Counted from the first letter of the stretch, positions 16,247 through 28,467 are shown. The stretch: 64,000 nucleotides of DNA from Candidatus Dormibacteria bacterium (GCA_049521435.1 JBEKOU010000003.1:12688-76687); one strand, 5' to 3'. The notes: generated by a model from the letters alone, not told the origin. Program-made: numbers and translations.

Positions 16247-17440
16247 GTGCGAGGCAGATACGAGCACCGGGTGTGGCAGTGGAACCCATCGATCTACGCC
16301 CCCTCCAAACACCGGAGGGGTTGCGAGTACGAAGCCTTTGTGCCTGAGCGGATCGCCGAGCTCGAGCCAGACCTGCCCGGTGCGGTGGCAGGAGTGGTCT
16401 CCGACGCGGAGGCGGCGATTGCCGAACTCAACCGCGGGGACAGGCTGGAGCTGCAGCCGCTGGCCCGTCTCCTCCTGAGGACCGAGTCCATAGCCTCCTC
16501 GAAGGTCGAGGGCATGCAGGTCGAGACACGGACGCTGGCTCGCGCCGAGGCCAAGCAGGAGGTCGGAAGGTCGATCGGGGCCGAGGCTGCCGGAATCCTG
16601 GCCAACATCGATGCCATGCAGCTGGCCATCGAGCGGGCGGTGGCAGCTGATGCCATCACGCAGGACGACCTCCTCGACATCCACCGCCGACTCCTGGCAC
16701 GAGCTCCCAATGCCAGCGCCATGGCGGGCAGGTTCCGGCAGGGCCAGAACTGGATTGGGGGAAACGACTACAACCCATGCGGAGCAGACTTCGTCCCGCC
16801 ACCGCCCGAGGAGATGCCCCCGCTCCTGGATGATCTCTGCCGTTTCGCCAACGACGATAGCCTGCCTCCACTGGTCCAGGCTGCAATCGCCCACGCGCAG
16901 TTCGAGACCATTCACCCGTTCGAGGACGGGAACGGGCGCACGGGCCGCGCACTCGTCCAGGTCATCCTGCGCCGGCGTGGACTGGCACCAACCTTCGTCC
17001 CACCGATCAGCGTCGCGCTGGCGAGAGACAAGGGGACGTACATCCGAGGCCTGACCGACTTCCGGGAAGGACTTCTCTCCCGCTGGATCGAGATGTTCGC
17101 GGCGGCCGCCGCTCGGGCGGCGACACTGGCCACGAGCTACGTGGCTTCGGTTGAGCTGCTGCAGGCGGGCTGGCGTGAACAAGTCCGATCGCGCTCGAAT
17201 CCGCGGTCGGACGCTGCGGCGTGGGACCTGATCAGGGTCCTGCCGGCGCATCCCATCATCACGGTGGCGGTTGGGGTGGCGGCCACAGGCAGGAGCAAGC
17301 CGGCAATCTCCAATGGGATCAGCGAACTCCAGAGCGCCGGTGTTCTCACATCGCTGACCAGCTCGCCCCGGAACCGCGCCTGGGAAGCCGCCGGACTCCT
17401 GGATCTCGTCGAGGAGGTGGAATCCGGCGACTGGGAATGA
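16247..17440 (+). CDS. fic: Fic family protein (class II, N-terminal inhibitory motif; AMPylase-type active site)
   Basis: HPFEDGNGRTGRAL matches HxFx(D/E)GNGRxxR. SSKVEG matches the (S/T)xxxE(G/N) inhibitory helix. The C-terminal part looks like a winged helix. Confidence 0.9.
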   Translation: MRGRYEHRVWQWNPSIYAPSKHRRGCEYEAFVPERIAELEPDLPGAVAGVVSDAEAAIAELNRGDRLELQPLARLLLRTESIASSKVEGMQVETRTLARAEAKQEVGRSIGAEAAGILANIDAMQLAIERAVAADAITQDDLLDIHRRLLARAPNASAMAGRFRQGQNWIGGNDYNPCGADFVPPPPEEMPPLLDDLCRFANDDSLPPLVQAAIAHAQFETIHPFEDGNGRTGRALVQVILRRRGLAPTFVPPISVALARDKGTYIRGLTDFREGLLSRWIEMFAAAAARAATLATSYVASVELLQAGWREQVRSRSNPRSDAAAWDLIRVLPAHPIITVAVGVAATGRSKPAISNGISELQSAGVLTSLTSSPRNRAWEAAGLLDLVEEVESGDWE

Positions 17441-17445
17441 CCGAC

Positions 17446-18294
17446 TCAGCTCACCTCAATGGGAGTCGTCGCCGTGCCCAGCACAGCGCCCGATGCCGAC
17501 GTAACGGTGAAGACCACGGAGTAACTCCCGAGCGGAGCGGTCACACAGGAGCTGGGCAGAGGCGTCGGCGTTGGCTGTGCCGGCGGTAGGGTGCCAGGTG
17601 CCAAGGTCGCGACAGGGATCTGGGTCGGGGTGGTGTATGGGAAGGGACACATCCACACCGCGAAGGCGTACCAGGGAATCTCGGCCATCCCACCCGACGG
17701 CACCTGAACGGCTGCATACGCGTGGGACGCTCCCGACCACCACGACACCGGCTGTCCCGAGGGATCCAGGATCGTGAACTCTCCGGTCAGAGCGGGCACC
17801 GCGCACCCGCCCGCAAGGTCCAGATAGCCGGTGAACCCCATGTTATTGCCGGGCTGTGCGTCCGGCAAACTCGGATCGCTGTCGTAATTGGGGTCATCCA
17901 CGTGCATGGCCTGCTCGTAGATGTGCGTCACGGGGGACGCGCAGTAGGTCGACCCCGGCTGCGGCGCGACCTGCGGGGGGGCGGAGATACCCGCGCCGTT
18001 GGCGGTGGGGGTGGAGGGCGCGGGGAGCGAGGAAGGCGGGCTGGACGGGGCGGGAGACGAGGAAGGCGGGGTGGAGGTGATCGGCGCGAGGGTCGACGTC
18101 GGTTCGGGCGAGCTCAACGTCGTGGTCGCTGCCTCCGCCTGGCTCGCCCGGGGAGCTGACGATCGGTGTTGTACCACGCTGATCGTGAGCACGCCCGCGA
18201 GGACGACAGCCAGGCAGAGAGATGCAAGCGCCTCTTTCCACCAACCCCTTCCCATGGGGGCGGATTGTCGCACGCGCCGCTGTCGGGTATCCAC
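17446..18294 (-). CDS. membrane-anchored or secreted Pro/Ser/Thr-rich protein, unknown function
   Basis: N-terminal anchor WWKEALASLCLAVVLAGVLTISVV, a PS-rich linker (TPPSSSPAPSSPPSSLPAPSTP), then a Cys-containing globular part. Confidence 0.5.
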   Translation of the reverse strand: MDTRQRRVRQSAPMGRGWWKEALASLCLAVVLAGVLTISVVQHRSSAPRASQAEAATTTLSSPEPTSTLAPITSTPPSSSPAPSSPPSSLPAPSTPTANGAGISAPPQVAPQPGSTYCASPVTHIYEQAMHVDDPNYDSDPSLPDAQPGNNMGFTGYLDLAGGCAVPALTGEFTILDPSGQPVSWWSGASHAYAAVQVPSGGMAEIPWYAFAVWMCPFPYTTPTQIPVATLAPGTLPPAQPTPTPLPSSCVTAPLGSYSVVFTVTSASGAVLGTATTPIEVS

Positions 18295-18339: not shown

Positions 18340-19362
18340 TCAGCGGCGGCGCAGGCTGCTGTCGGTGAGCTCCGGCGGGGCCCAGCCGGCGTCAGCGGGG
18401 TTGAGGTTGGTCCCCGGCGGCACGATCTCGTCGATGCGGTCGAGGGTGGCCTCGTCGAGGGTCACCTCGGCAGCGCCGAGCTGGCTCTCCAGGTGCTCCA
18501 TGGTGCGGGGTCCGATGATCGCCGCGGTCACCGCCGGGTGGCGGATGACGAAGGCGAGGGCGAGGTGGATGAGGCTGATGCCCGCCTCGCCGGCGAGCTT
18601 GGTGAGTCCTTCGACGGCGTCGAGCTTGCGCTGGTTGACCGGAAGGGTCAGGTCGTAGCGCTGGGGCAGCCGGGTGGCTCGCATGCTCGTCGGCGCCGCT
18701 CCTCGGTGGTAGGCGCCGGAGAGGAACCCACCGGCGAGCGGGCTCCAGGGGATGACCCCCATCCCGTACTTCTTGCAGACGGGCAGCACCTCGGCCTCGA
18801 CCCCGCGGACCAGCAGCGAGTACGGCGGCTGCTCACAGACGAAGCGCTCCCGACCGCGGCGCTCGGCGACCCACTGCGCCTCGACGATCTGCGACGCGGG
18901 AAAGGTGGAGCTGCCGAAGGCGCGGATCTTGCCGGCACGCTCCAGGTCGGTGAGCGCACCAAGGGTCTCGTCGATATCGCAGCTCGGGTCCGGCCGATGG
19001 ATCTGGTAGAGGTCGATCCAGTCGGTCTGGAGGCGGCGCAGGCTCGCCTCGCACTCGCGGATGATCCAGCGCCGTGAGTTGCCCTGGGCGTTGGGGTCGT
19101 CGCCCATCTGGGCGTGCACCTTGGTGGCCAGCACCACCTGGTCCCGCCGTCCCTCGGCGAGAGCCTTGCCGACGATCTGCTCGGACTCCCCCTGCGAGTA
19201 GACGTCGGCGGTGTCGATGAAGTTGATCCCCGCATCGAGGGCGCGATGGATGATGCGGATCGAGTCGTCGTGGTCCGGGTTACCCCAGGCGCCGAACATC
19301 ATGGCGCCGAGGCAGAGCGGGCTGACCTGAATCCCAGTGCGGCCGAGAGTGCGTTGCTGCAT
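18340..19362 (-). CDS. aldo/keto reductase
   Basis: [42 protein letters not shown], 340 aa. Confidence 0.95.
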
Positions 19363-19477
19363 GCCAAAGACGATACGCGCCCGGTACTCTGCGCCGACCA
19401 GGCCCGGTCACCGTGAGAGGCTGCCAGCGGGGCAGGTCGTCGAGTGGGGCTTGCGCAGGCGCGAGATGCAATCGCGC

Positions 19478-19629
19478 CGAGCACGAGCAGCCGACGCCAA
19501 AGGCGTCGGACTGCGGTCCCCCGAGACGATGTGCCCCACCGGCAGCCCGCTCTTGCGAAAAGCTCGAGCACGAGGCGCGGACAGCAGAGCTGTCCGACGC
19601 CGGTCCCCCCGAGATGATGGGCCCCGCCG
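19478..19629. repeat. two tandem about 65-nt units (87-nt period), each a hairpin plus a conserved C-rich tail
   Basis: Unit A 19478-19542: CGAGCACGAG-cag-CCGACGCC-aaa-GGCGTCGG-actgc-GGTCCCCCGAGACGATGTGCCCCACCGG. Unit B 19565-19629: CGAGCACGAG-gcg-CGGACAGC-aga-GCTGTCCG-acgcc-GGTCCCCCCGAGATGATGGGCCCCGCCG. Confidence 0.6.
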
Positions 19630-19656
19630 ACACCCCGCCCTCGCGGTGACCCCCGA

Positions 19657-20862
19657 CTACCCGAAAGCGTCCTCGCCGGTGATGGCCTTCCCCAGGATCA
19701 GGGTGTGGACCTCCTCGGTCCCCTCGTAGGTGAGCACCGCCTCAAGGTTTGCCATGTGGCGGGCGACCGGGTAGTCGAGGGTGAGCCCGTTGGCACCCAG
19801 GATGGTTCGCGCCGCGCGGGCGATCTCGATGGCGGTCCGGGTGTTTGCCCGCTTGGCGAGCGACACCTGGACGGTGTGGACGCGGCCGGCGTCCTTCAGG
19901 GTGCCGAGCCGGTGGGCCACCAGCCGTCCCTGAACCAGCCGGGTCGCCATCTCGGCGAGCTTGGCCTGGGTGAGCTGAAAGTGCGCGATCGGATGGCCGA
20001 AGGCCTCGCGGCTGCGGGCGTACTCGACGGCGGCCGTGAAACAGGCGCGAGCGGCGCCGAGCACACCCCAGGCGATGCCGAAGCGCGCCTCGTCGAGGCA
20101 GGCGAGCGCACCGCTCAGCCCGCGGGCCTCGGGCAGCATGGAGGCCTCCGGCACCCTCACCTCGTCGAGGATCAGCTCCGAGGTCACCGAGGCACGGAGG
20201 GAGAGCTTGCCCTCGATGTCGCGGGCCGAGAAGCCGGGCGTCCCCCGCTCCACCAGGAAGCCGCGGATGCCATCGTCGGTCTGCGCCCAGACCACGGCGA
20301 TGTCGGCGAGCGAGCCGTTGGTGATCCACATCTTGGTCCCGGAGAGAACCCAGTCCCCGCCCTCGCGGCGTGCGTGGGTGCGCATCGCCCCGGGATCGCT
20401 GCCCGCGTCGGGTTCGGTCAGCCCGAAGCAGCCGATCGCCCTCCCCGCCGCCATCTCCGGGAGCCACCGCTCGCGCTGCTCGGAGCTACCGAAGCGGTGG
20501 ATGGGGAACATCGCCAGCGATCCCTGCACCGAGACGAAGGAGCGCAGACCGCTGTCCCCGGCCTCCAGCTCCTCACAGGCCACCCCGTAGGCGACCGCCG
20601 AGGCGCCGGCGCAGCCGTACCCCTCGAGGTGCATGCCCAGCAGGCCCAGCTCGCCCAGCTCGGGGATCAGCTCGCGAGGGAAGCTCCCGGCCGCGAAGTG
20701 CTCACCGGCGTGGGGCAGGAAGCGCTCGCGCACAAAACCCCGCACCGTCAGCTGGACGAGCCGCTCCTCATCGCTCAAGAGCTGGTCGACGGCGTAGAGG
20801 TCGGCCGGGTCGAGGCGCGGCCGCGCCCCATCTCTAGCGCTGTCCGTCCCCATGCGCCCCAT
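19657..20862 (-). CDS. acyl-CoA dehydrogenase (glutaryl-CoA dehydrogenase-like)
   Basis: GCFGLTEPDAGSDPGAM, GTKMWITNG and YEGTEEVHTLILG. The ATG at 20862 or 20853 is preferred over the track start at 20979, whose N-terminus is Cys/Trp-rich junk. Confidence 0.9.
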   Translation of the reverse strand: MGRMGTDSARDGARPRLDPADLYAVDQLLSDEERLVQLTVRGFVRERFLPHAGEHFAAGSFPRELIPELGELGLLGMHLEGYGCAGASAVAYGVACEELEAGDSGLRSFVSVQGSLAMFPIHRFGSSEQRERWLPEMAAGRAIGCFGLTEPDAGSDPGAMRTHARREGGDWVLSGTKMWITNGSLADIAVVWAQTDDGIRGFLVERGTPGFSARDIEGKLSLRASVTSELILDEVRVPEASMLPEARGLSGALACLDEARFGIAWGVLGAARACFTAAVEYARSREAFGHPIAHFQLTQAKLAEMATRLVQGRLVAHRLGTLKDAGRVHTVQVSLAKRANTRTAIEIARAARTILGANGLTLDYPVARHMANLEAVLTYEGTEEVHTLILGKAITGEDAFG

Positions 20863-20911
20863 TGTCACATCAAGCGCCGGACTGCGAATGGGACGAGCGG
20901 GCCCGCGCCCG

Positions 20912-22546
20912 TCAGTGGCCCAGGCCCAGCTCGACCGCCTTGACCAGCAGCAGCAGCACGGCCACGAGGATGTAGGCACCCATCGCCGTCATCCCGATCC
21001 TGCGACCGCGCGACGGCACCGGCCGGGTGAGCAGGGCGATGGGCGGCATCCGCCAGGTGAACCGATCCTCCTTGGCCTTGGCCGTCACCGCCGGCGCCAG
21101 GCTGCCCCGGGTGGAGATGCCGATCCCGGCCAGCCCGACCACGAGGATGCCGCCGAAGAGGATCAGCAGGAAGGTGACACTGACGCCAGAGAAGATGGTG
21201 GAGAAGACGAGGATCAGGGAGAGCATCACCAGGATGGCGAGGATCACGGTCGCCAGCACGTTGAGCCACGGCTTGTTGACCCAGGGGCCGAGCACCGCGG
21301 AGTCGTTGCAGAGCAGGAGCAGGAAGAGGCTCGCACTGGGCAGCAGCGTGCCCGCCAGGGCCTGCACCGCGGTGGTGATCAGACCGAGCGGGGCGTGGGG
21401 GATGAGCACGATGCCCGCCGCCACCACGACGACGGCGGTGAACACGGCGTAGAAGGGTTTGGCCTCCCGCCAGGAGCGGTGCAGCGAGTGGCGGATCCCG
21501 AAGACGTCGCCGAACGCGTAGGAGGTCGCCAGGGTGACGGCGCTCGCGCCGATCACCGAGGCGTCGATGAGCAGCACCGAGAAGATGGCGCCGAGCGCGG
21601 AGCTGACGTGCTTGGCCAGCCCCTCGGCCACCGTCTGCGCATCGGCGAAATGGCCGGCGAGGAGCGTTCCATGAAACGCCGTTGCGGTCGTGATCATGAT
21701 GGCCGCGGCGCCGATGACGACGACGAAGGCGCCCACCACGGTGTCGGTTCGCTCATACGCGATCCAGCGCGGGGTGATGCGCTTGTCGACGACGTTCGAC
21801 TGCTGGAAGAAGAGCTGCCACGGGGCCACCGTCGTGCCCACGATGGCGACGATGAGCAGTGCGCCATTGGAGCTCAGCCCGCCCTGGATGCCCGGGATCA
21901 GGAAGCCGTGCAGGACCGGACCGAGGGTGGGATGGGCGAGCACCACCAGGGGGATCACCAGCGCGTTGCCCCCCAGGATGACGAACATCAGGCGTTCCCA
22001 GGTCGAGAACTTGCCGGTCACGGTGATGCCGATCAGGAAGATGGCGCCGATGGGGACGGCGATGTACGGGCTCACCCCGAAGTAGGCGGCGCCGAGACCG
22101 ATGCCGATGAACTCGGTGGTGATGGTGAGGAAGTTGAGGAGGAAGAGGTCGCCGACCGAGAACCATCCCCAGAACTTCCCGAAGCGCTCAAAGATCAGCC
22201 GCCCGTGCCCGACCCCGGTGACCGCCCCGAGGCGGACCACCATCTCCTGGTTGACGATCAGCACCGGGATGAGCAGGACCAGCACCCAGAGCAGGCTGGT
22301 GCCGTAGTTCTGTCCCGCCTGGGCGTAGGTCGCGACGCCGCCGGCGTCGTTGTCGCCGACCATGACGATGAGCCCCGGTCCCATGATCACGGCCAGCGCG
22401 AGGAGCCGCCGCCGCCAGGTCCGCCGGCTGCCGTGCTCCTGCTCGTGGATGGTGCCGAAGGCCCCCTTGATGTCGCCGAGGTGAGCGTCGTCGAGGACCG
22501 CGCTCTTCCGCGCCTCTCCTGCGCTCCGGTGCCTCTCGTCGACCAA
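20912..22546 (-). CDS. NRAMP-family transporter with an NRMT-like (Mg2+-type) substituted metal site
   Basis: TM1 GPGLIVMVGDNDAGGVATY (canonical DPGN becomes DAGG). TM6 VGTTVAPWQLFFQQS (canonical MPHN becomes APWQ). 11-12 TM overall. TTG start. Confidence 0.85.
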   Translation of the reverse strand: MVDERHRSAGEARKSAVLDDAHLGDIKGAFGTIHEQEHGSRRTWRRRLLALAVIMGPGLIVMVGDNDAGGVATYAQAGQNYGTSLLWVLVLLIPVLIVNQEMVVRLGAVTGVGHGRLIFERFGKFWGWFSVGDLFLLNFLTITTEFIGIGLGAAYFGVSPYIAVPIGAIFLIGITVTGKFSTWERLMFVILGGNALVIPLVVLAHPTLGPVLHGFLIPGIQGGLSSNGALLIVAIVGTTVAPWQLFFQQSNVVDKRITPRWIAYERTDTVVGAFVVVIGAAAIMITTATAFHGTLLAGHFADAQTVAEGLAKHVSSALGAIFSVLLIDASVIGASAVTLATSYAFGDVFGIRHSLHRSWREAKPFYAVFTAVVVVAAGIVLIPHAPLGLITTAVQALAGTLLPSASLFLLLLCNDSAVLGPWVNKPWLNVLATVILAILVMLSLILVFSTIFSGVSVTFLLILFGGILVVGLAGIGISTRGSLAPAVTAKAKEDRFTWRMPPIALLTRPVPSRGRRIGMTAMGAYILVAVLLLLVKAVELGLGH

Positions 22547-22580
22547 GCCGGACCTCCCGCTGCCGGATGGGGCAGCACAA

Positions 22581-22601
22581 CTGAGCGGGCCCGCCGCTCA
22601 G
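22581..22601 (-). terminator. hairpin CTGAGCGG-CGGGC-CCGCTCAG in the 266-nt leader of the NRAMP-like gene
   Basis: 8-bp stem read directly. On the minus strand it is followed by TTGTGCTGCC, 35 nt before the TTG start. Confidence 0.3.
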
Positions 22602-22812
22602 GAGGTCACGACGCTGTCAGACCCCTGGGCTAACGTGCCTCTTTGCGCCGGCGCACCACCACGTCGCTGCTGACGTCGATGGAGCCCCGGACCGCCTACT
22701 ATCGCCGTCTTCCATGGGCACCTCTGGCTGTTGACTGCCGGCGCCAGTCTACCAGGGGGCGGTGAGGCTCCCGACCCAGGTCCGGCAGGATCAGCGACCC
22801 TTATTCTCCGTC

Positions 22813-24099
22813 TCAGCCGTGATCGGCCTCGGAGCGGCGGCGCCAGGAGTCGGGGAGCATCGCCTCCAGCACGTCGTCCACCGAGATGACCCCGATGATG
22901 CGGCGGCCCTCGTCCACAACCGGGACGACGCTCAGGTTGAAGTCGGTCATCAGCCGGGCAACCTCGGGGAGGTCGTCCCCCGCCTCCAGCGCGGTGTCGC
23001 CCCGCTGCACCAGCTTGGCGACCCCGCCGTTGCCCCGGGCCTGGATCAGGCTCACCAGGGGGACGGCGCCGACCAGGCGGCCCGAGGCGTCCGTGACGAA
23101 GACGTCGGCGAGCACCTGGGGCGATAGCCCCGCAACTTTCACAGCGGCGAGCGCCTCGGTCACGGTTGCCGCCTCGGCCACCGCGACGAAATCGGGGCTC
23201 ATCAACCCGCCCGCGCTCTCCGGGCTGTAGCTGAGCAGGGCCCGCACCTTGGCCTGCTTGGCGGGAGGGAGGAGGGCGAGGATGGCGGCACGCCGCGCCT
23301 GGTCGAGCTCGGTGATGAGGTCGGCGGCGTCGTCGGCGCCCATGCCGGCGAGCACCATGGCCGCCTCAGCGTCGGATCGCGCGTGGAGAAACTCGACCTG
23401 GTGCTCGGTGTTGAGCTCCTCGAAGACATCAGCCTCCAGCTCGGGATCGGCGTGGACGGCGGTGATGATCTCCTCCCCCTCCTCATGGGAGGCGCTCTCC
23501 ACGATGTCGGCGATCTCGGCGGGGTGGAGGCGGCGCAGCCGGCGGATCGGCATGAGCAGCCGGGAGGTGGGGACGTGGCCGACAAAGGGCTCCACCTGAG
23601 CCCAGTCGACGAAGTAGCGGGCGTGGTGGCGGGGAGCGTTGAAGGGAGGAGGCAGCATCCGCCGCAGCGCTCCCCGGCGGCTGGAGTCGACGCCGGCCAC
23701 CTTCCACCCGCCGCGCCCGGCGGTCAGCTGGATGTCGCCGGCGGTGATCAATCGTCCCGTCTCCACGCTGATCACCCGCCGTCCGAGCACGTCAGCGCGG
23801 AGCAGCACCTCACCCTGACGGCGTTCGAAGCGGAGCAGGCTGAGCGTCTCGCCGGTGAGCTGCACGCGCCCACCCGCCACCTCGCCGAGGCGATCGCGGG
23901 GGACGAAGAGCCGCCGGCCGGCAAGTCGCGCGATCAGCCCGGTCACGGGCGGATAGCCGCCCGCACCGAGACGGACGATCACGTCCTCGACTCGCCCGAG
24001 CGTCTCCCCAGCACGGTCGACGATCCGGCTGTGGGTGATCTCGGTGAGCCAGAGGCGCGCGACCCCCGACGGCGACGGCTCGGTGTCTGATGTGGTCAT
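22813..24099 (-). CDS. soluble PRC-barrel + MgtE N-terminal domain + CBS-pair protein (no transmembrane domain)
   Basis: RLHPAEIADIVESASHEEGEEIITAV...EFLHARSDAEAAMVLAGMGADDAADLITELD (MgtE_N-like), then two CBS-like repeats ending VVPVVDEGRRIIGVISVDDVLEAM. The protein ends without TM helices. ATG at 24099 is preferred over TTG at 24135. Confidence 0.8.
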   Translation of the reverse strand: MTTSDTEPSPSGVARLWLTEITHSRIVDRAGETLGRVEDVIVRLGAGGYPPVTGLIARLAGRRLFVPRDRLGEVAGGRVQLTGETLSLLRFERRQGEVLLRADVLGRRVISVETGRLITAGDIQLTAGRGGWKVAGVDSSRRGALRRMLPPPFNAPRHHARYFVDWAQVEPFVGHVPTSRLLMPIRRLRRLHPAEIADIVESASHEEGEEIITAVHADPELEADVFEELNTEHQVEFLHARSDAEAAMVLAGMGADDAADLITELDQARRAAILALLPPAKQAKVRALLSYSPESAGGLMSPDFVAVAEAATVTEALAAVKVAGLSPQVLADVFVTDASGRLVGAVPLVSLIQARGNGGVAKLVQRGDTALEAGDDLPEVARLMTDFNLSVVPVVDEGRRIIGVISVDDVLEAMLPDSWRRRSEADHG

Positions 24100-24176
24100 C
24101 TGACGGCCTACAGTCTGCCACGTCCCCCGACCCAAGGCGCCGAGACTGGCGCAGCGCTCCCCAGTCCCGCGCGCGG

Positions 24177-25601
24177 TCAGGTTTCGGGGATGACGCCGGC
24201 TTCGCGACCGCTGCTCAGGGAGCGCGGCCAGCTCACCCCCATGCTCGCCCCACCGCTCGGCGAGTCCCCGATCTGCCAGCGGCCCCCGGTGGCGGAGACG
24301 ACGGAGTTGGCGATGGCCAGGCCGAGCCCCGCGCCGCCAGGCTGGTCGGTGGCACGCCGGAAGCGGTCGAAGATGTGCGCCCGCTCATCGACGGGGATGC
24401 CGGGACCGGAGTCGTCGACCGAGGTGCGTATCCGGTTGCCGTCGGGCCACACCGCGACGTCGATGCTCCCGCCCTCCGGCACGTACTTGGAGGCGTTGTC
24501 CAAGAGGACGCCCAGGAGGCGGTCGAGCCAGTCCGGCGGGGCGTGGACCACGAGCGGCTCGGGTGCCGTCCGAACCGTCAGCCGGACGCCCTTGGCCTCG
24601 GCGACGGCGGTGAACCGATCGGCCGCCATGTGGGCGAGGACGGCGAGGTCCACGTGCTCCGCCTGCGCGCGTTCACGGGTCGTGTCGAAGCGGGCCAGCC
24701 AGAGCAGGTCCTCGACCAGCCGGCGCATGCGGCCGCTCTCCCCCTGCACCCGCTGGAAGGCGGCGTGGTACCAGCCCACGTCGCGCGGTTGGGCGAGGGC
24801 GAGGGAGGTCTGGGCCTCGATCACCGAGAGCGGGGTGCGCAGCTCGTGAGAGGCGTCGGCGGTGAACTCCATCTGGCGAACACGAGCCTGCTCGATGGGG
24901 GCGGCCACCCGGCGGCCGATGGTGAGCGCACCGAGGAAGACGGCGAGCAGGAGGACCGGACCCACGATGGTCTCGGCCAGGATCAGGTTGCCCTCGGCGG
25001 AGCCGACCCCGCTCAGCGACTGACCGATGACCATCCGCACCAGCGTCACCGGCTCGTAGATGGGCAGATCGGTCACGGGATCGACGGCGACCTGGGCGTC
25101 GTAGTGGACCGCCGGGCTGATGTCCGTGCCGATCACCCGGAAGTCGTCGCCGCCGACGGAGACGGTCTGCGGCGTGGCTCCGACGCCCAGGGCGAACGCC
25201 GGGAGCTCGTTGCCGGTGGAGGTCGGGACCGTGCACGCCTGCAGCTGAGCCTGGGGGTCACAGACTATCTCGGTGCCGTCGGCCGCGACGAACCAGTACC
25301 AGAGCGGAGAGCTCGACGTCCCGGTGGATTGCGGGGTACCGCCGGCGGTGGAGGTGGCCAGGGCCTGGCTCAATTGGGCGTCGACCTCCGAGGCCTCCCG
25401 CGCGCTGACGATCAGGACCACCACCACCGCGATCACCAGGTAGACGGCGGCGACGATGGCGGTGCTGACCAGGGCGACCCGGGTGGCCGCCACCCGCACC
25501 CGGCGCAGCGCGTCCCGTCCGGCGTCGCCGGTGCCGGTGGCGGTCCCGCCGGAGAGCCGATCGAGGGCGCGACCGATCCCTGCGAGGGGCCCGAAGCTCA
25601 C
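24177..25601 (-). CDS. sensor histidine kinase
   Basis: Two TM segments, FTADASHELRTPLSVIE (H-box), HATPase motifs (DNASKY, DSGPGI, GGAGLGLAI). GTGA overlap with the regulator gene. Confidence 0.9.
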   Translation of the reverse strand: MSFGPLAGIGRALDRLSGGTATGTGDAGRDALRRVRVAATRVALVSTAIVAAVYLVIAVVVVLIVSAREASEVDAQLSQALATSTAGGTPQSTGTSSSPLWYWFVAADGTEIVCDPQAQLQACTVPTSTGNELPAFALGVGATPQTVSVGGDDFRVIGTDISPAVHYDAQVAVDPVTDLPIYEPVTLVRMVIGQSLSGVGSAEGNLILAETIVGPVLLLAVFLGALTIGRRVAAPIEQARVRQMEFTADASHELRTPLSVIEAQTSLALAQPRDVGWYHAAFQRVQGESGRMRRLVEDLLWLARFDTTRERAQAEHVDLAVLAHMAADRFTAVAEAKGVRLTVRTAPEPLVVHAPPDWLDRLLGVLLDNASKYVPEGGSIDVAVWPDGNRIRTSVDDSGPGIPVDERAHIFDRFRRATDQPGGAGLGLAIANSVVSATGGRWQIGDSPSGGASMGVSWPRSLSSGREAGVIPET

Positions 25602-26269
25602 CCCGCCTCCTCGAGCCGGTATCCCGCGCCCCGCACCGTGACGATCCGGACGCCGGCGCTCGGGAGCTTGGCCCGGAGCCGGCTGAGCTGGACGTCGATG
25701 GCGTTGGAGCCGAGGGCGTCGGTCTCGTCCCGCCAGCCGTGCTCGGCGATCGCCTTGCGGTCGACGACCGCGGGAGACCGCCGCATCAGCAGCTCGAGGA
25801 TGTTGTACTCGGTGGTGGTGAGGTTGACCGGGCGACCGAGGGCGGTCACCTCGCGGCGGAGCGGGTCGAGTGCCAGGCCGCCCCGGGTGATCACCGGTGC
25901 GTCCACCCCGCGGGGGCGGCGCTGGAGAGCCCGGATCCGGGCCAGCAGCTCGCTGAAGTCGAAGGGCTTGACCAGGTAGTCGTCGGCCCCGGCGTCGAGG
26001 CCCTCCACACGGTCGGGCGGGGTGTCCCGGGCGGTCAGCATCAGGATCGCGGTGGGCCGCTCGTGGCGGCGTGCCCAGCGGACCACGTCGATGCCGGCGC
26101 CGCCGGGCATCCGCCAGTCGATCACGGCGACGTCGTACTCGTAGAACTTGAGCTGGTCGATGGCGTCGTCGCCACGGCCGACGGCATCGACCTGGTAGCC
26201 GCCGTCCTCGAGGCCCTGGATCAGAACGGAACGGAGACCGGGATCGTCCTCGGCGACCAGGATTCGCAT
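25598..26269 (-). CDS. OmpR-family response regulator
   Basis: MRILVAEDDPGL...VAVIDWRMPGG...LTARD...DDYLVKPF, plus a winged-helix C-terminus (LTTTEYNILELL...VRGAGYRL). Confidence 0.95.
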   Translation of the reverse strand: MRILVAEDDPGLRSVLIQGLEDGGYQVDAVGRGDDAIDQLKFYEYDVAVIDWRMPGGAGIDVVRWARRHERPTAILMLTARDTPPDRVEGLDAGADDYLVKPFDFSELLARIRALQRRPRGVDAPVITRGGLALDPLRREVTALGRPVNLTTTEYNILELLMRRSPAVVDRKAIAEHGWRDETDALGSNAIDVQLSRLRAKLPSAGVRIVTVRGAGYRLEEAG

Positions 26270-26321
26270 GGCATCAGTCTCGCGCAGCCGGGCCCCGAGC
26301 GCAGCCTCTCACCACCGGAGA

Positions 26322-27170
26322 CTAGGAGCTGGTGGTCGTCGTGGTGGTGGTCCCGCCCCCACCACCTCCGAAGCCGCCGAATCCGCCGCCGCCGAAGCCA
26401 CCGAACCCGCTCCCGCCCGTGAAGCAGCCGGACGGACCGGCGGGCTCGATGAGCAGGGAGCTGGCGGTCACCACACCCGAGGAGCTCTTGGGGCCGATGG
26501 CGGCGACGCAGGTGCCGGACGTCAGGTCGGAGACCGAACCCGCGGTCGTCGTGGAGACCGAGGCGGTGCTCGGTACCGTGATGCCCTGGCTGGAGCCACC
26601 GGTGGGCTGGACGGTCACCACGCCGCCGCTCACGGCGGTGACCACCCCCCGGACGCTCGCGAAGTCGAAGTTGAAACCACCGGAGGGTCGCGGAGCGAAG
26701 CTGAAGTCGGGTCGGCCGCCCGGGAAGCCGCCCGGATTGCCGCCCGCAAACGAGGTCGCCGGGCAGGAGCCGTTGACCTCCGGCGAGACCGTCACCCGGT
26801 TCGCAACGATGGTACCCGCGGCGTCGCTGCCGGTCGCGGTGATGCAGCTCCCGACCGCGATGTCGGAGACGCTGCCGGTCCCGGTCTGGCTGATGGGTGT
26901 CGAGCTGCTGAAGTCGACGGTCACGTCGCCGCTCGAGGTGTTGAGCACGAGGGTCGACCCGCTGAGGCTGACCACGCTCCCGTCGGTGAGGTTGCCATCC
27001 CGGAATCCGCCGTATCGGCCCGGCAAGGAGCTGCCCGTCGTGCCGCAGGCCGCGATCACGAGCGCCACGCCGGCGAGCGTCGCGACGGTGGCCACGCGCG
27101 CGCGCCAACGGCCAGCGGCCGGCCCGCGTTCCGCCGTGCCCCTCCGCGTCGCCAGCAACCTCTTCACCAC
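26322..27170 (-). CDS. lipoprotein with two DUF5666-like beta domains and a Gly-rich/poly-Thr tail
   Basis: Lipobox LAGVALVIAACG. Repeats: GSVVSLSGSTLVLNTSSGDVTVDFSSSTPISQ...VSDIAVGSCITATG and VRGVVTAVSGGVVTVQP...ITVPSTASVS...VSDLTSGTCVAAIG. Tail GGFGGGGFGGFGGGGGGTTTTTTTSS. GTG at 27170 is assumed; an ATG at 27314 is also in frame. Confidence 0.6.
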   Translation of the reverse strand: MVKRLLATRRGTAERGPAAGRWRARVATVATLAGVALVIAACGTTGSSLPGRYGGFRDGNLTDGSVVSLSGSTLVLNTSSGDVTVDFSSSTPISQTGTGSVSDIAVGSCITATGSDAAGTIVANRVTVSPEVNGSCPATSFAGGNPGGFPGGRPDFSFAPRPSGGFNFDFASVRGVVTAVSGGVVTVQPTGGSSQGITVPSTASVSTTTAGSVSDLTSGTCVAAIGPKSSSGVVTASSLLIEPAGPSGCFTGGSGFGGFGGGGFGGFGGGGGGTTTTTTTSS

Positions 27171-27336
27171 TCCTCGGACCTCGACCGGTTCCCCGGAGCT
27201 TGGGGGTGGCGCCGGTCGCGATGCGCGGCCGGCACCACCCGGGGGGGAGGTCGTAGATCGGTAGCGAGCCCATTCCACCCCAGGCCACCTTTCGAATCCG
27301 TGATGCCGATCCATGTGAATCCGCGATGGCGCTTCA

Positions 27337-28467
27337 ATGACGCCCGATAGCATGCGCATCGCCCTCATCGCCCCGCTCATCGCCCCGCTGCACGAGCCCC
27401 AGATGGGCGGCGTGCAGACCTTCCTGGTCGACCTGGCTCGGGGTCTCGCCGGGCGCGGACACGATGTCACCGTCTTTGCCGCCCGCGGCTCCCGGGTGGA
27501 GGGGGTGCGGGTCGTCGACACCGGGGTGGACTCCGCGCTGCTCGGCACCACCCTCTTCCGTCCGGAGGCCTCGGAAGCGATCCTGGATGCGCGGGGTGCC
27601 GCCGCCAGAGCCGCCGGGAAGACCGCCGCCGAGGCCGCCTTCGCCGCCACGGCAGCGCTCATCGGAGAGGACGAGCTCGAATTCGACCTCGTCCACAATC
27701 ACGCCTTCGACGTCCCGGCGATCCGCCACGCCGCGAACCTCACCGCCCCGGTGCTCCACACCCTCCACATGCCCCCCGACCCCGGTATCGGCGCTGCCCT
27801 CACCGCCGCCCGCCGAAGCCCCCGCCCGCCGCTCGTCGCCGCGGTCTCGGAGGCCCAGGCGGCGTCCTGGCGCGACCTGGTGGAGATCGACGCCGTGCTC
27901 CGTCCCGGGATCCCGACGACGGTGATCCCGTGGTCCCCGATCCCGACCTCCGGCCGCCTCCTCTTCGCCGGCCGCCTCTCACCGGAGAAGGGGGCCCGGG
28001 AGGCGATCGTCATCGCCCGGGCGGCGGGGCGGCGCCTGCTCCTCTGCGGCCCCGCGTACGACCCAGAGTACGGCGCCCAGCTGCAGGCGCTCGACGACGG
28101 CCTCACCCTCGAGGTCCGCCCCGCCCTGGTGAGGTCCGCGCTCTGGGCGGAGATGGCCTCTGCCGCCGCCGTGCTCTGCCCGGCAGGATGGGACGAGCCC
28201 TTCGGCCTGGTGGCGGCAGAGGCCAACGCCTGCGGGACCCCGGTGGTGGGCTTCCGCAGGGGCGGCCTCTCCGAGGTGGTCGCCGATGGGGTCACGGGGA
28301 TCCTGGTCGCGGCGGGCGACGTCGCCGGGGCGGCCGCGGGAGTGGGACGGGCGGATCAATTGAGCCGCCAATCCTGCCGCAGCCACGCCGAGCGTCACCT
28401 CGACCTGGAGGCGACCCTCGACGCCCACGAGCGAACCTACCGCCGGGCCGTCGGGAACCGAGGCTGA
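27337..28467 (+). CDS. GT4-family (GT-B) glycosyltransferase
   Basis: MRIALIAPLIAPLHEPQMGGVQTFLVDLARGLAGRGHDVTVF and EPFGLVAAEANACGTPVVGFRRGGLSEVV. The start may be the ATG at 27352. Confidence 0.9.
   Translation: MTPDSMRIALIAPLIAPLHEPQMGGVQTFLVDLARGLAGRGHDVTVFAARGSRVEGVRVVDTGVDSALLGTTLFRPEASEAILDARGAAARAAGKTAAEAAFAATAALIGEDELEFDLVHNHAFDVPAIRHAANLTAPVLHTLHMPPDPGIGAALTAARRSPRPPLVAAVSEAQAASWRDLVEIDAVLRPGIPTTVIPWSPIPTSGRLLFAGRLSPEKGAREAIVIARAAGRRLLLCGPAYDPEYGAQLQALDDGLTLEVRPALVRSALWAEMASAAAVLCPAGWDEPFGLVAAEANACGTPVVGFRRGGLSEVVADGVTGILVAAGDVAGAAAGVGRADQLSRQSCRSHAERHLDLEATLDAHERTYRRAVGNRG

Follow-up and report, generated by a model that had tools for sequence, protein, structure and literature searches.

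An MgtE-type cytosolic module encoded upstream of an NRMT-clade transporter in Candidatus Dormibacterota, with a conserved upstream-ORF leader between the two genes

Introduction

In a 64,000-nucleotide stretch of DNA from a Candidatus Dormibacterota genome (GCA_049521435.1, JBEKOU010000003.1:12688-76687; G+C content of about 70%), referred to below as the window, two genes lie one behind the other on the minus strand. The upstream one encodes a soluble protein of 428 amino acids (aa), which combines a PRC barrel, an MgtE_N domain and a CBS pair and which, in anticipation of its predicted role, is called here the sensor. The downstream one, nrmT, encodes a 544-aa transporter related to the SLC11/NRAMP family. 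The initial annotation of this DNA, made from the sequence alone, placed the MgtE-type gene directly upstream of the transporter gene; this is accurate as to strand and adjacency, but 266 nucleotides (nt) separate the two genes, and this spacer, at positions 22547-22812(-), is itself conserved among relatives.

The same annotation took the pairing to be uncharacterised. As an observation it is not new, since Shin et al. 2014 (PLoS Genet, PMC4072509), who named NrmT, already reported that most NrmT genes follow an open reading frame (ORF) homologous to the MgtE cytoplasmic domain. They suggested that this MgtE-like fragment exerts feedback regulation from the cytoplasm or acts as a metal chaperone. 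The idea of a sensor paired with this transporter is thus a rediscovery of a published hypothesis, and the gene pair would not surprise a specialist, because it has been described before. We found no later literature on an MgtE-like partner of NrmT, and the 2022 structural paper on the Eggerthella lenta homologue, EleNRMT, is silent on such a partner (PMC8806188). Three features of the locus are new here: an N-terminal PRC-barrel extension of about 190 aa on the sensor, two extra C-terminal helices which make the transporter a 13-helix carrier, and a conserved leader between the genes, composed of an upstream ORF and a sequence complementary to the Shine-Dalgarno (SD) site of nrmT (anti-SD).

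Results

The transporter

The transporter matches the Pfam Nramp family (E 2.4e-73), and by its sequence it belongs to the NRMT clade and not to MntH, since every sequence feature by which we judged membership is present in it. NRMTs are defined by DxxG in helix 1 and TxxA/T in helix 6, where canonical NRAMPs have DxxN and AxxM (Ramanadane et al. 2022, PMC8806188). Both strings from which the clade had been proposed initially, GDNDAGGVATY and TTVAPWQLFF, are exactly present in the 544-aa protein, and they align to NDAGGISTY and TTIAPWMMFF of EleNRMT (7qia). GDNDAGGV falls on D55...G58 of EleNRMT, giving DxxG in place of DxxN, and GTTVAPW falls on G-T224-T-I-A227-P-W, giving TxxA in place of AxxM; in the whole alignment, EleNRMT residues D55, G58, E133, T224, A227 and Q379 correspond to D67, G70, E145, T238, A241 and Q395 of the window protein. 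Both alpha-6b histidines of the proton pathway are lost, their positions being taken by W243 and Q248 (in APWQLFFQ), where EleNRMT has W and N. The sequence is also nearer to the characterised NRMT than to MntH or DMT: EleNRMT 7qia is the best solved match (E 1.5e-53, 185.6 bits), the next solved chain follows at E 5.5e-16, and the named MntH and DMT chains at 6.8e-14 or weaker. The NCBIfam MntH model gave 96.7 bits, against a cut-off of 430. The placement in the NRMT clade thus stands as originally proposed.

Among the 80 transporter sequences recovered (those of 79 related loci and of the window), NDAGG is found in 72, and TTVAPWQ occurs in 66 loci; E145, Q395 and the alpha-6b W and Q are conserved along with DxxG and TxxA. 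Five partner transporters are only about 32% identical to that of the window, yet their sequences, read directly, carry NDAGG and TTITPY, so they too are of the NRMT type. In these five loci (L041, L055, L058, L075, L076) the partner of the PRC-MgtE_N-CBS sensor is an NRMT of a shorter subtype, which has the NDAGG/TTITPY site, a basic N-terminus and no extra C-terminal helices.

The window transporter is predicted to be selective for Mg2+. Its T238 is conserved, and the equivalent residue of EleNRMT is needed for transport of Mg2+ and not for that of Mn2+, EleNRMT carrying both ions (PMC8806188). The protein further contains a conserved N-terminal cytoplasmic motif, LDDAHLGDIKGAFGT (GDIxGAFGT), at residues 18-32, and the two extra hydrophobic membrane helices, at residues ~455-481 and 516-544, are joined by a conserved loop, WxMPPxxLLxRP.

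The sensor

At its full length the sensor ORF spans 22813-24135(-) and 440 aa. Its homologues, 420-430 aa long, begin at Met13 of this ORF, so the coding sequence is likely the 428-aa one listed in Table 1, whose end at 24099 agrees with the boundary first assigned to the gene. As had been claimed, the protein contains an MgtE N-domain and a CBS pair (Pfam MgtE_N, E 4.6e-22; CBS, E 2.7e-14). Its best solved sequence match is the cytosolic domain of Thermus thermophilus MgtE (2yvy, E 9.5e-30), and MgtE cytosolic domains were also returned by Foldseek (8gpv, E 1.4e-19; 2yvy, 9.8e-18) for an AlphaFold model with a mean pLDDT of 76; further structure predictions, among them that of residues 1-190, used fragments of retrieved proteins as input.

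The protein stops without any membrane domain, again as described initially: no membrane segment was found in it by 19-residue hydropathy (maximum 1.51), and it ends 16 residues past the CBS pair, where MgtE would continue into its five-helix pore. The NCBIfam equivalog model for mgtE, TIGR00400, gave 113 bits, against a cut-off of 232.75. Since a hydrophobic segment and the pore domain are absent and TIGR00400 is below its cut-off, the sensor is not an MgtE channel. Judged from sequence and model, it is the soluble cytosolic half of MgtE without the pore.

The region preceding MgtE_N had been annotated as PRC-barrel repeats. One barrel, at residues ~15-81, is clear from the relatives and from the model. 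PF05239 gives 18 bits for the window protein, which is under the Pfam cut-off of 21.2, but it matches 18 of 26 sensor family members (best E 2.5e-6), and the model of residues 1-190 (pTM 0.70) matches PRC-barrel proteins, including CdpB1/B2 (8qzo, E 1e-4), 8onw, 1pm3, MTH1859, reaction-centre H subunits and RimM. A second beta module at ~97-165 is plausible, so that the plural in the annotation holds only in part.

The predicted sensing of Mg2+ finds its counterpart in the ligand positions. In MgtE, the sites Mg4 (D91/D247), Mg5 (D226/D250), Mg6 (D95) and Mg7 (E59) lie in the cytosolic domains, and Mg2/Mg3 are formed by E258/D259 on the plug helix (Maruyama et al. 2018, PMC5882242). In a gap-free alignment these map to D256/D409 (Mg4), N388/E412 (Mg5), D260 (Mg6) and D224 (Mg7) of the sensor, so acidic ligands of Mg4-Mg7 are retained, except at Mg5, where D226 is replaced by N388; D250 of the same site is represented by E412. 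In an alignment of 26 sensor family members, which was used to assess the conservation of these columns, D224, D256, D260 and D409 are invariant (26/26). The invariant acidic residues of MgtE_N are D224, D256, D257 and D260, and those conserved in the CBS pair are D376, D408, D409 and E412, the last in 25 of the 26. The annotation had also attributed ATP sensing to this module, and this part is not supported by the sequence: the side chains that contact ATP in T. thermophilus MgtE (Y170, R187, D188, N203 and F227; PMC5529423) have been replaced by D, V, S, Q and L in the sensor of the window, in columns that vary among the family.

Behind the CBS pair, the protein ends in a PxSWRRR tail, in which P416 and R420-R422 are invariant and W419 is present in at least 90% of members. 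The tail sits where the plug helix of MgtE would begin and is a candidate docking or membrane-interface element.

Conservation of the pair

When 185,579 species genomes were scanned with a degenerate pattern, at least 542 loci were found that encode sensor relatives of constant length. The metagenome-assembled genomes (MAGs) in which they lie are labelled Dormibacterota, Solirubrobacterales, Acidimicrobiales, Gaiellaceae, Thermoleophilia and Chloroflexota, and in one case Acidobacteriota. The nearest relatives are Candidatus Dormibacterota MAGs from fen or peat (L001, L002), with a protein identity of 95-96%. A survey of synteny between MgtE_N-CBS genes and NRAMP-related genes, which had been suggested as a check on the pairing, bore it out: the sensor gene is followed on its own strand by an NRMT gene in 79 of the best 80 of these loci, and in metagenome loci the sensor gene is found at most 3 kb upstream of nrmT in 40 of 45. 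The pair of sensor and NRMT is conserved across Dormibacterota, Actinomycetota and Chloroflexota.

The locus with the Acidobacteriota label (L040, JAGWNV010000001.1) encodes a sensor 71-99% identical to the retrieved homologues, of which those named by NCBI are from Acidimicrobiales. A protein search with this sensor, aimed at a counterpart in Acidobacterium capsulatum, returned only Acidimicrobiales-like proteins; given such homologues, the label may be an error of binning or classification.

The leader of nrmT

Read 5' to 3' on the minus strand, the spacer carries TGGTAGACT, GAGGTG, the upstream ORF, GACCTCC, two hairpins and GGGAGGTC, which sits 6 bases 5' of TTG, the initiation codon of nrmT (Table 1). 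TGGTAGACT is conserved as TGnTAGnnT in three divergent groups. GACCTCC follows the stop codon of the upstream ORF by 9 nt and pairs with GGAGGTC of the SD region in both the minimum-energy and the centroid folds. The same anti-SD/SD arrangement was found in 27 loci. No covariation was visible in the anti-SD:SD helix, and since all six of its pairs are invariant, that test is uninformative; a shuffle control was used instead. A perfect complement of at least 7 nt to the SD region, within 88 nt upstream, was present in 41% of 61 loci and in 2.8% of shuffles (14-fold).

In many lineages an upstream ORF of 19-45 codons occupies this position, and these ORFs have an acidic motif in common, which reads MEDGDSRRS or MDGGDSPQS in Dormibacterota, MESDDPLSS in Thermoleophilia-like loci, and MDREQPRST or YQDSELPRSS in Solirubrobacterales. 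Many of them are preceded by an SD site, most clearly those of the MDREQPRST group, where AAGGAGG usually lies 6 nt before ATG. In its strict form, [DE]x0-2[DE]x0-2P[RQ]S[STRK], the motif was found in 33 of 72 spacers, at a density of 1.05 per kb as compared with 0.0067 per kb elsewhere on both strands of the same loci (156-fold). EDGDSRRS of the window falls outside this strict pattern and is linked to the motif family only through alignment with its relatives. An exact-pattern scan of metagenomes gave 112 matches, 74 of them with the acidic motif in frame; an NRMT gene follows in all 69 motif matches with enough downstream sequence, and in none of the 35 among matches without the motif. A short upstream ORF with an acidic N-terminus, placed beside a stem that holds the ribosome-binding site of a transporter gene, is the arrangement known for acidic leader peptides, and it is found here.

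In its body the upstream ORF varies at the peptide level and holds a hairpin with one compensatory change of G-C to A-U. In the upstream ORFs of group A, variable sites number 3, 2 and 6 by codon position, which is a weak test of selection on the peptide. In groups A and B (L018, L026, L027, L035 and others) a CCN-CGA-AGT-A core is invariant, including the wobble positions of CGA (Arg) and AGT (Ser), and the Pro, Asp and Ala codons beside CGA-AGT vary synonymously. In the window, the corresponding segment reads GAT-AGT-AGG. Both CGA and AGT are expected to be rare in genomes of high G+C content. The invariance of CGA-AGT could reflect slow decoding or a contact at the RNA level.

Loci that lack a spacer between the sensor gene and nrmT were inspected as well, and no upstream-ORF leader was seen in them ahead of the sensor gene. 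In three metagenome loci (L112, L148, L184) the same upstream-ORF leader precedes NRMT genes with a long proline-rich N-terminal extension, their ORFs being about 600 aa in L112 and L148 and 375 aa, as recovered, in L184.

An M-box in orthologous loci

In four loci from Acidimicrobiaceae, whose nrmT is 61-63% identical to that of the window, an M-box (ykoK, RF00380; 115-123.5 bits) lies directly upstream of nrmT, at 7985-8152 in L019, 7989-8156 in L021 and L022, and 7924-8088 in L045. Downstream of the M-box come a stretch resembling the upstream ORF and the GACCTCC / GGGAGGTC pair known from the window. These four loci also have a gene for a 505-aa secreted-hydrolase-like protein between the sensor gene and nrmT. 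Scans of the window and of 35 further related loci detected no M-box. Association with the M-box, which is seen in a subset of the family, served Shin et al. 2014 (PMC4072509) as a marker of Mg2+ specificity, and its occurrence before orthologues of the window gene is the best indirect evidence that the long-type NRMT clade would serve Mg2+ homeostasis.

Gene neighbourhood

The arrangement of the spacer suggests that the sensor gene and nrmT do not form a tight operon, and that nrmT is preceded by a promoter-like element of its own and controlled through its leader. A scan of positions 20700-24400 for promoters and terminators of the E. coli type gave no sites, and the promoter-like elements of the window in Table 1 are listed on conservation only. 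A two-component system precedes the sensor gene. It was considered as a conserved regulator of the pair and rejected, as only the five closest loci have retained it upstream of the sensor gene, which leaves a functional link to the pair uncertain. Elsewhere in the window we noted a 397-aa ORF with a Fic-type motif (HPFEDGNGRTGR) at 16247-17440(+) and two low-complexity ORFs, one with a Gly-rich tail followed by a Thr run (GFGGFGGGGFGGFGGGGGGTTTTTTT) at 26322-27698(-), the other encoding a secreted-looking Pro/Ser/Thr-rich protein at 17446-18294(-).

Table 1. Features of the sensor-nrmT locus (positions counted from the first nucleotide of the window)
Feature	Position	Strand	Basis or remark
nrmT, 544-aa SLC11/NRAMP-related transporter, NRMT clade	20912..22546	-	ORF call, Pfam, EleNRMT alignment
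SD site of nrmT, GGGAGGTC, 6 bases before TTG	22551..22558	-	conserved in alignments
Two GC-rich hairpins, CTGAGCGG...CCGCTCAG and GCTGCC...GGCAGC, inside the anti-SD:SD helix	22559..22601	-	
Anti-SD GACCTCC, perfect complement of GGAGGTC	22601..22607	-	folds
Upstream ORF, 32 codons and stop (MEDGDSRRSGAPSTSAATWWCAGAKRHVSPGV*), acidic N-terminal motif MEDGDSRRSG...	22617..22715	-	
GAGGTG, SD-like site before the upstream ORF	22719-22724	-	
TGGTAGACT, extended -10-like promoter element, 5' edge of the conserved leader	22746..22754	-	conservation only
Sensor gene, 428-aa soluble protein: PRC barrel, MgtE_N and CBS pair	22813..24099	-	
C-terminal PxSWRRR tail of the sensor	22834..22854	-	alignment columns
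CBS pair of the sensor, residues ~300-415	22855..23202	-	
MgtE_N domain of the sensor, residues 191-293	23221..23529	-	
N-terminal beta region of the sensor: PRC barrel, residues ~15-81, and plausible second beta module, ~97-165	23605..24057	-	
TGGCAGACT, putative -10-like element 5' of the sensor ATG	24112..24120	-	also in locus L006
Histidine kinase	24177-25601	-	directly upstream of the sensor gene, same strand
OmpR-type response regulator	25598-26269	-	same-strand neighbourhood 5' of the sensor gene (24177-26269)

Discussion

The reading that we favour, with about even confidence, is that the pair in the window constitutes an NrmT-type module for the uptake of divalent cations, most likely Mg2+ and also Mn2+, which is subject to two layers of control, namely feedback by the sensor and regulation through the leader. 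Cytosolic Mg2+ would bridge the acidic faces of MgtE_N and of the CBS domains and close the sensor, as it does in MgtE. The closed form would then dock on the cytoplasmic face of the transporter and slow down transport, which would amount to feedback inhibition in trans. Candidate contacts in the sensor are the PxSWRRR tail and/or the PRC barrel, and in the transporter the conserved GDIxGAFGT motif near the N-terminus. Expression of nrmT would be set separately, through the leader of about 200 nt, where the progress of a ribosome on the upstream ORF would decide, by way of the anti-SD pairing, whether nrmT is translated, following the logic of enterobacterial mgtL and mgtQ.

Several observations weigh against such a scheme. 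When the Acp2976/2977 pair of A. capsulatum was co-expressed in B. subtilis, no further Mg2+ rescue was obtained, and the NrmT of A. capsulatum fully rescued a Mn2+ transport mutant and a Mg2+ mutant only weakly (PMC4072509). EleNRMT functions as a monomer without a partner (PMC8806188). The sensor lacks Mg2 and Mg3, the sites of the plug helix, and its Asn in place of the Mg5 ligand D226 is invariant, so affinity or cooperativity towards Mg2+ may differ from that of MgtE. As regards the leader, constraint on the upstream ORF is limited to its frame, length and stop position and, as peptide, to its first ~10 codons, and its codon variants among five close relatives comprise 4 synonymous and 25 non-synonymous ones. 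The CGAAGTA core is invariant at the nucleotide level, and the acidic motif might therefore be read at the level of RNA. Forced ribosome-footprint folding of 35 leaders revealed no consistent change in SD accessibility, and an Rfam search of positions 19000-28000, with E up to 5, returned no family and, in particular, no M-box.

Alternatively, the sensor might be a subunit that activates the 13-helix NRMT or is obligate for it, being required for this long carrier to be stable, to assemble or to open, and it would be released or inactivated by Mg2+. The nearly universal co-occurrence of the two genes would suit this role, as would the conservation of motifs outside the aligned EleNRMT core (the PxSWRRR tail of the sensor, and GDIxGAFGT and WxMPP of the long-type NRMT); however, the NrmT proteins of C. 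acetobutylicum and A. capsulatum complement transport defects without the MgtE-like fragment (PMC4072509), EleNRMT transports alone (PMC8806188), and we regard this explanation as unlikely. The module might instead serve chiefly for uptake of Mn2+, with the MgtE-like protein acting as a Mn2+ sensor or a metal chaperone, as suggested by Shin et al. for A. capsulatum. It is a fragment-adjacent NrmT without an M-box that shows the rescue pattern mentioned above, the window has no M-box either, and EleNRMT accepts Mn2+ as well. A module devoted mainly to Mn2+ nevertheless seems improbable to us in view of the M-box that directly precedes nrmT in four orthologous loci at 61-63% identity, of the conserved T238, and of the sensor ligands, which are hard carboxylates arranged as in MgtE.

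The sensor might also act on expression, its PRC part binding the leader RNA of nrmT, or the ribosome, in a Mg2+-dependent manner and thereby setting nrmT translation. The link found by the fold search between the PRC barrel and RimM, a ribosome maturation factor, the presence of a 50S-bound CBS protein (9e6q) among the matches of the sensor, and the conserved leader beside the sensor gene, in which CGAAGTA is an invariant core, would all fit. We nonetheless give this possibility little credence, since the spacer-less loci, with no such leader seen ahead of the sensor gene, keep the same sensor architecture, the sensor is also paired with short-type NRMTs over short spacers, and no nucleic-acid-binding motif was identified in it. 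It could also be supposed that the upstream gene plays no part in NRMT function and is either an unrelated neighbour or what decay has left of a split mgtE; the missing membrane domain and the sub-threshold TIGR00400 score are what one would then expect. Yet such a fragment would hardly be kept at constant length in more than 540 genome loci, with many invariant columns including those of the C-terminal tail, nor with synteny across phyla in 79 of the best 80, and the spacer holds a conserved leader and no remnant of a pore domain; conservation of this extent effectively excludes a functionless gene.

Feedback by the sensor combined with control through the leader remains the reading that we prefer, and it may be set beside the systems already described. 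The NrmT systems of Shin et al. 2014 (Ca_c0685/Ca_c3329 of C. acetobutylicum and Acp2976-2977 of A. capsulatum) resemble that of the window in gene order, an ORF for an MgtE cytoplasmic domain, which in the window stands immediately upstream of nrmT and on the same strand, being followed by the NRAMP-related transporter, as well as in identical substitutions at the transporter site and in the hypothesis of feedback regulation. The window differs from them by the absence of an M-box, by its phylum (Dormibacterota), by the 266-nt, probably regulatory leader between the genes, by the PRC-barrel region of ~190 aa in the sensor, which is unmentioned in PMC4072509, and by the two extra C-terminal helices of the transporter. 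EleNRMT (7qia, 7qic, 7qji, 7qjj; eLife) shares the site residues and the Trp at the first alpha-6b histidine; it is shorter, however (438 aa, as compared with 544), has N and not Q at the position of the second alpha-6b histidine, and was studied as a stand-alone uncoupled transporter of Mg2+ and Mn2+, no partner being considered (PMC8806188). With T. thermophilus MgtE (2yvy, 2yvx, 5x9g) the sensor has in common the fold of MgtE_N and the CBS pair and the acidic ligands of Mg4, Mg6 and Mg7. It lacks the membrane pore, the plug helix with Mg2 and Mg3, and Mg1, has Asn for the Mg5 ligand D226, does not conserve the ATP-contacting side chains, bears the PRC barrel at its N-terminus, and is a separate polypeptide encoded beside an unrelated carrier.

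For the leader, the nearest analogues are mgtQ, located between mgtC and mgtB (PMC8092293), and mgtL, in the leader of mgtA, in Salmonella and E. coli. Both consist of an acidic short ORF next to a ribosome-binding site held in a stem; mgtQ, in addition, is placed between two genes as the upstream ORF of the window is, and mgtL offers an analogue in its intrinsic ribosome destabilization. Sequence homology to either is absent, the ORFs found here comprise 19-45 codons and not 8 or 17, they have [DE]x[DE]xPRS[ST] with invariant CGAAGTA as their core, and the host phyla are different. The M-box, which takes the same position upstream of nrmT in the orthologous Acidimicrobiaceae loci, is absent from the window.

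A more far-reaching interpretation, which we offer tentatively and consider possible though not the likelier outcome, is that the locus represents a so far undescribed Mg2+-responsive regulator of nrmT, widespread in Actinomycetota and Dormibacterota, built from an upstream ORF and an anti-SD and replacing or joining the M-box, together with a PRC-bearing MgtE module that gates an SLC11 carrier in trans. If such gating is true, the cytosolic domain of MgtE would be a modular Mg2+ sensor used on two unrelated transport folds, and D224, D256, D260, D409 and the PxSWRRR tail of the sensor, as well as GDIxGAFGT of the transporter, are offered as residues on which this may be tested. The upstream-ORF leader, for its part, would extend the control of Mg2+ transporters by acidic leader peptides beyond enterobacteria, and may serve as a marker for regulation of nrmT in Actinomycetota and Dormibacterota of soil and peat.

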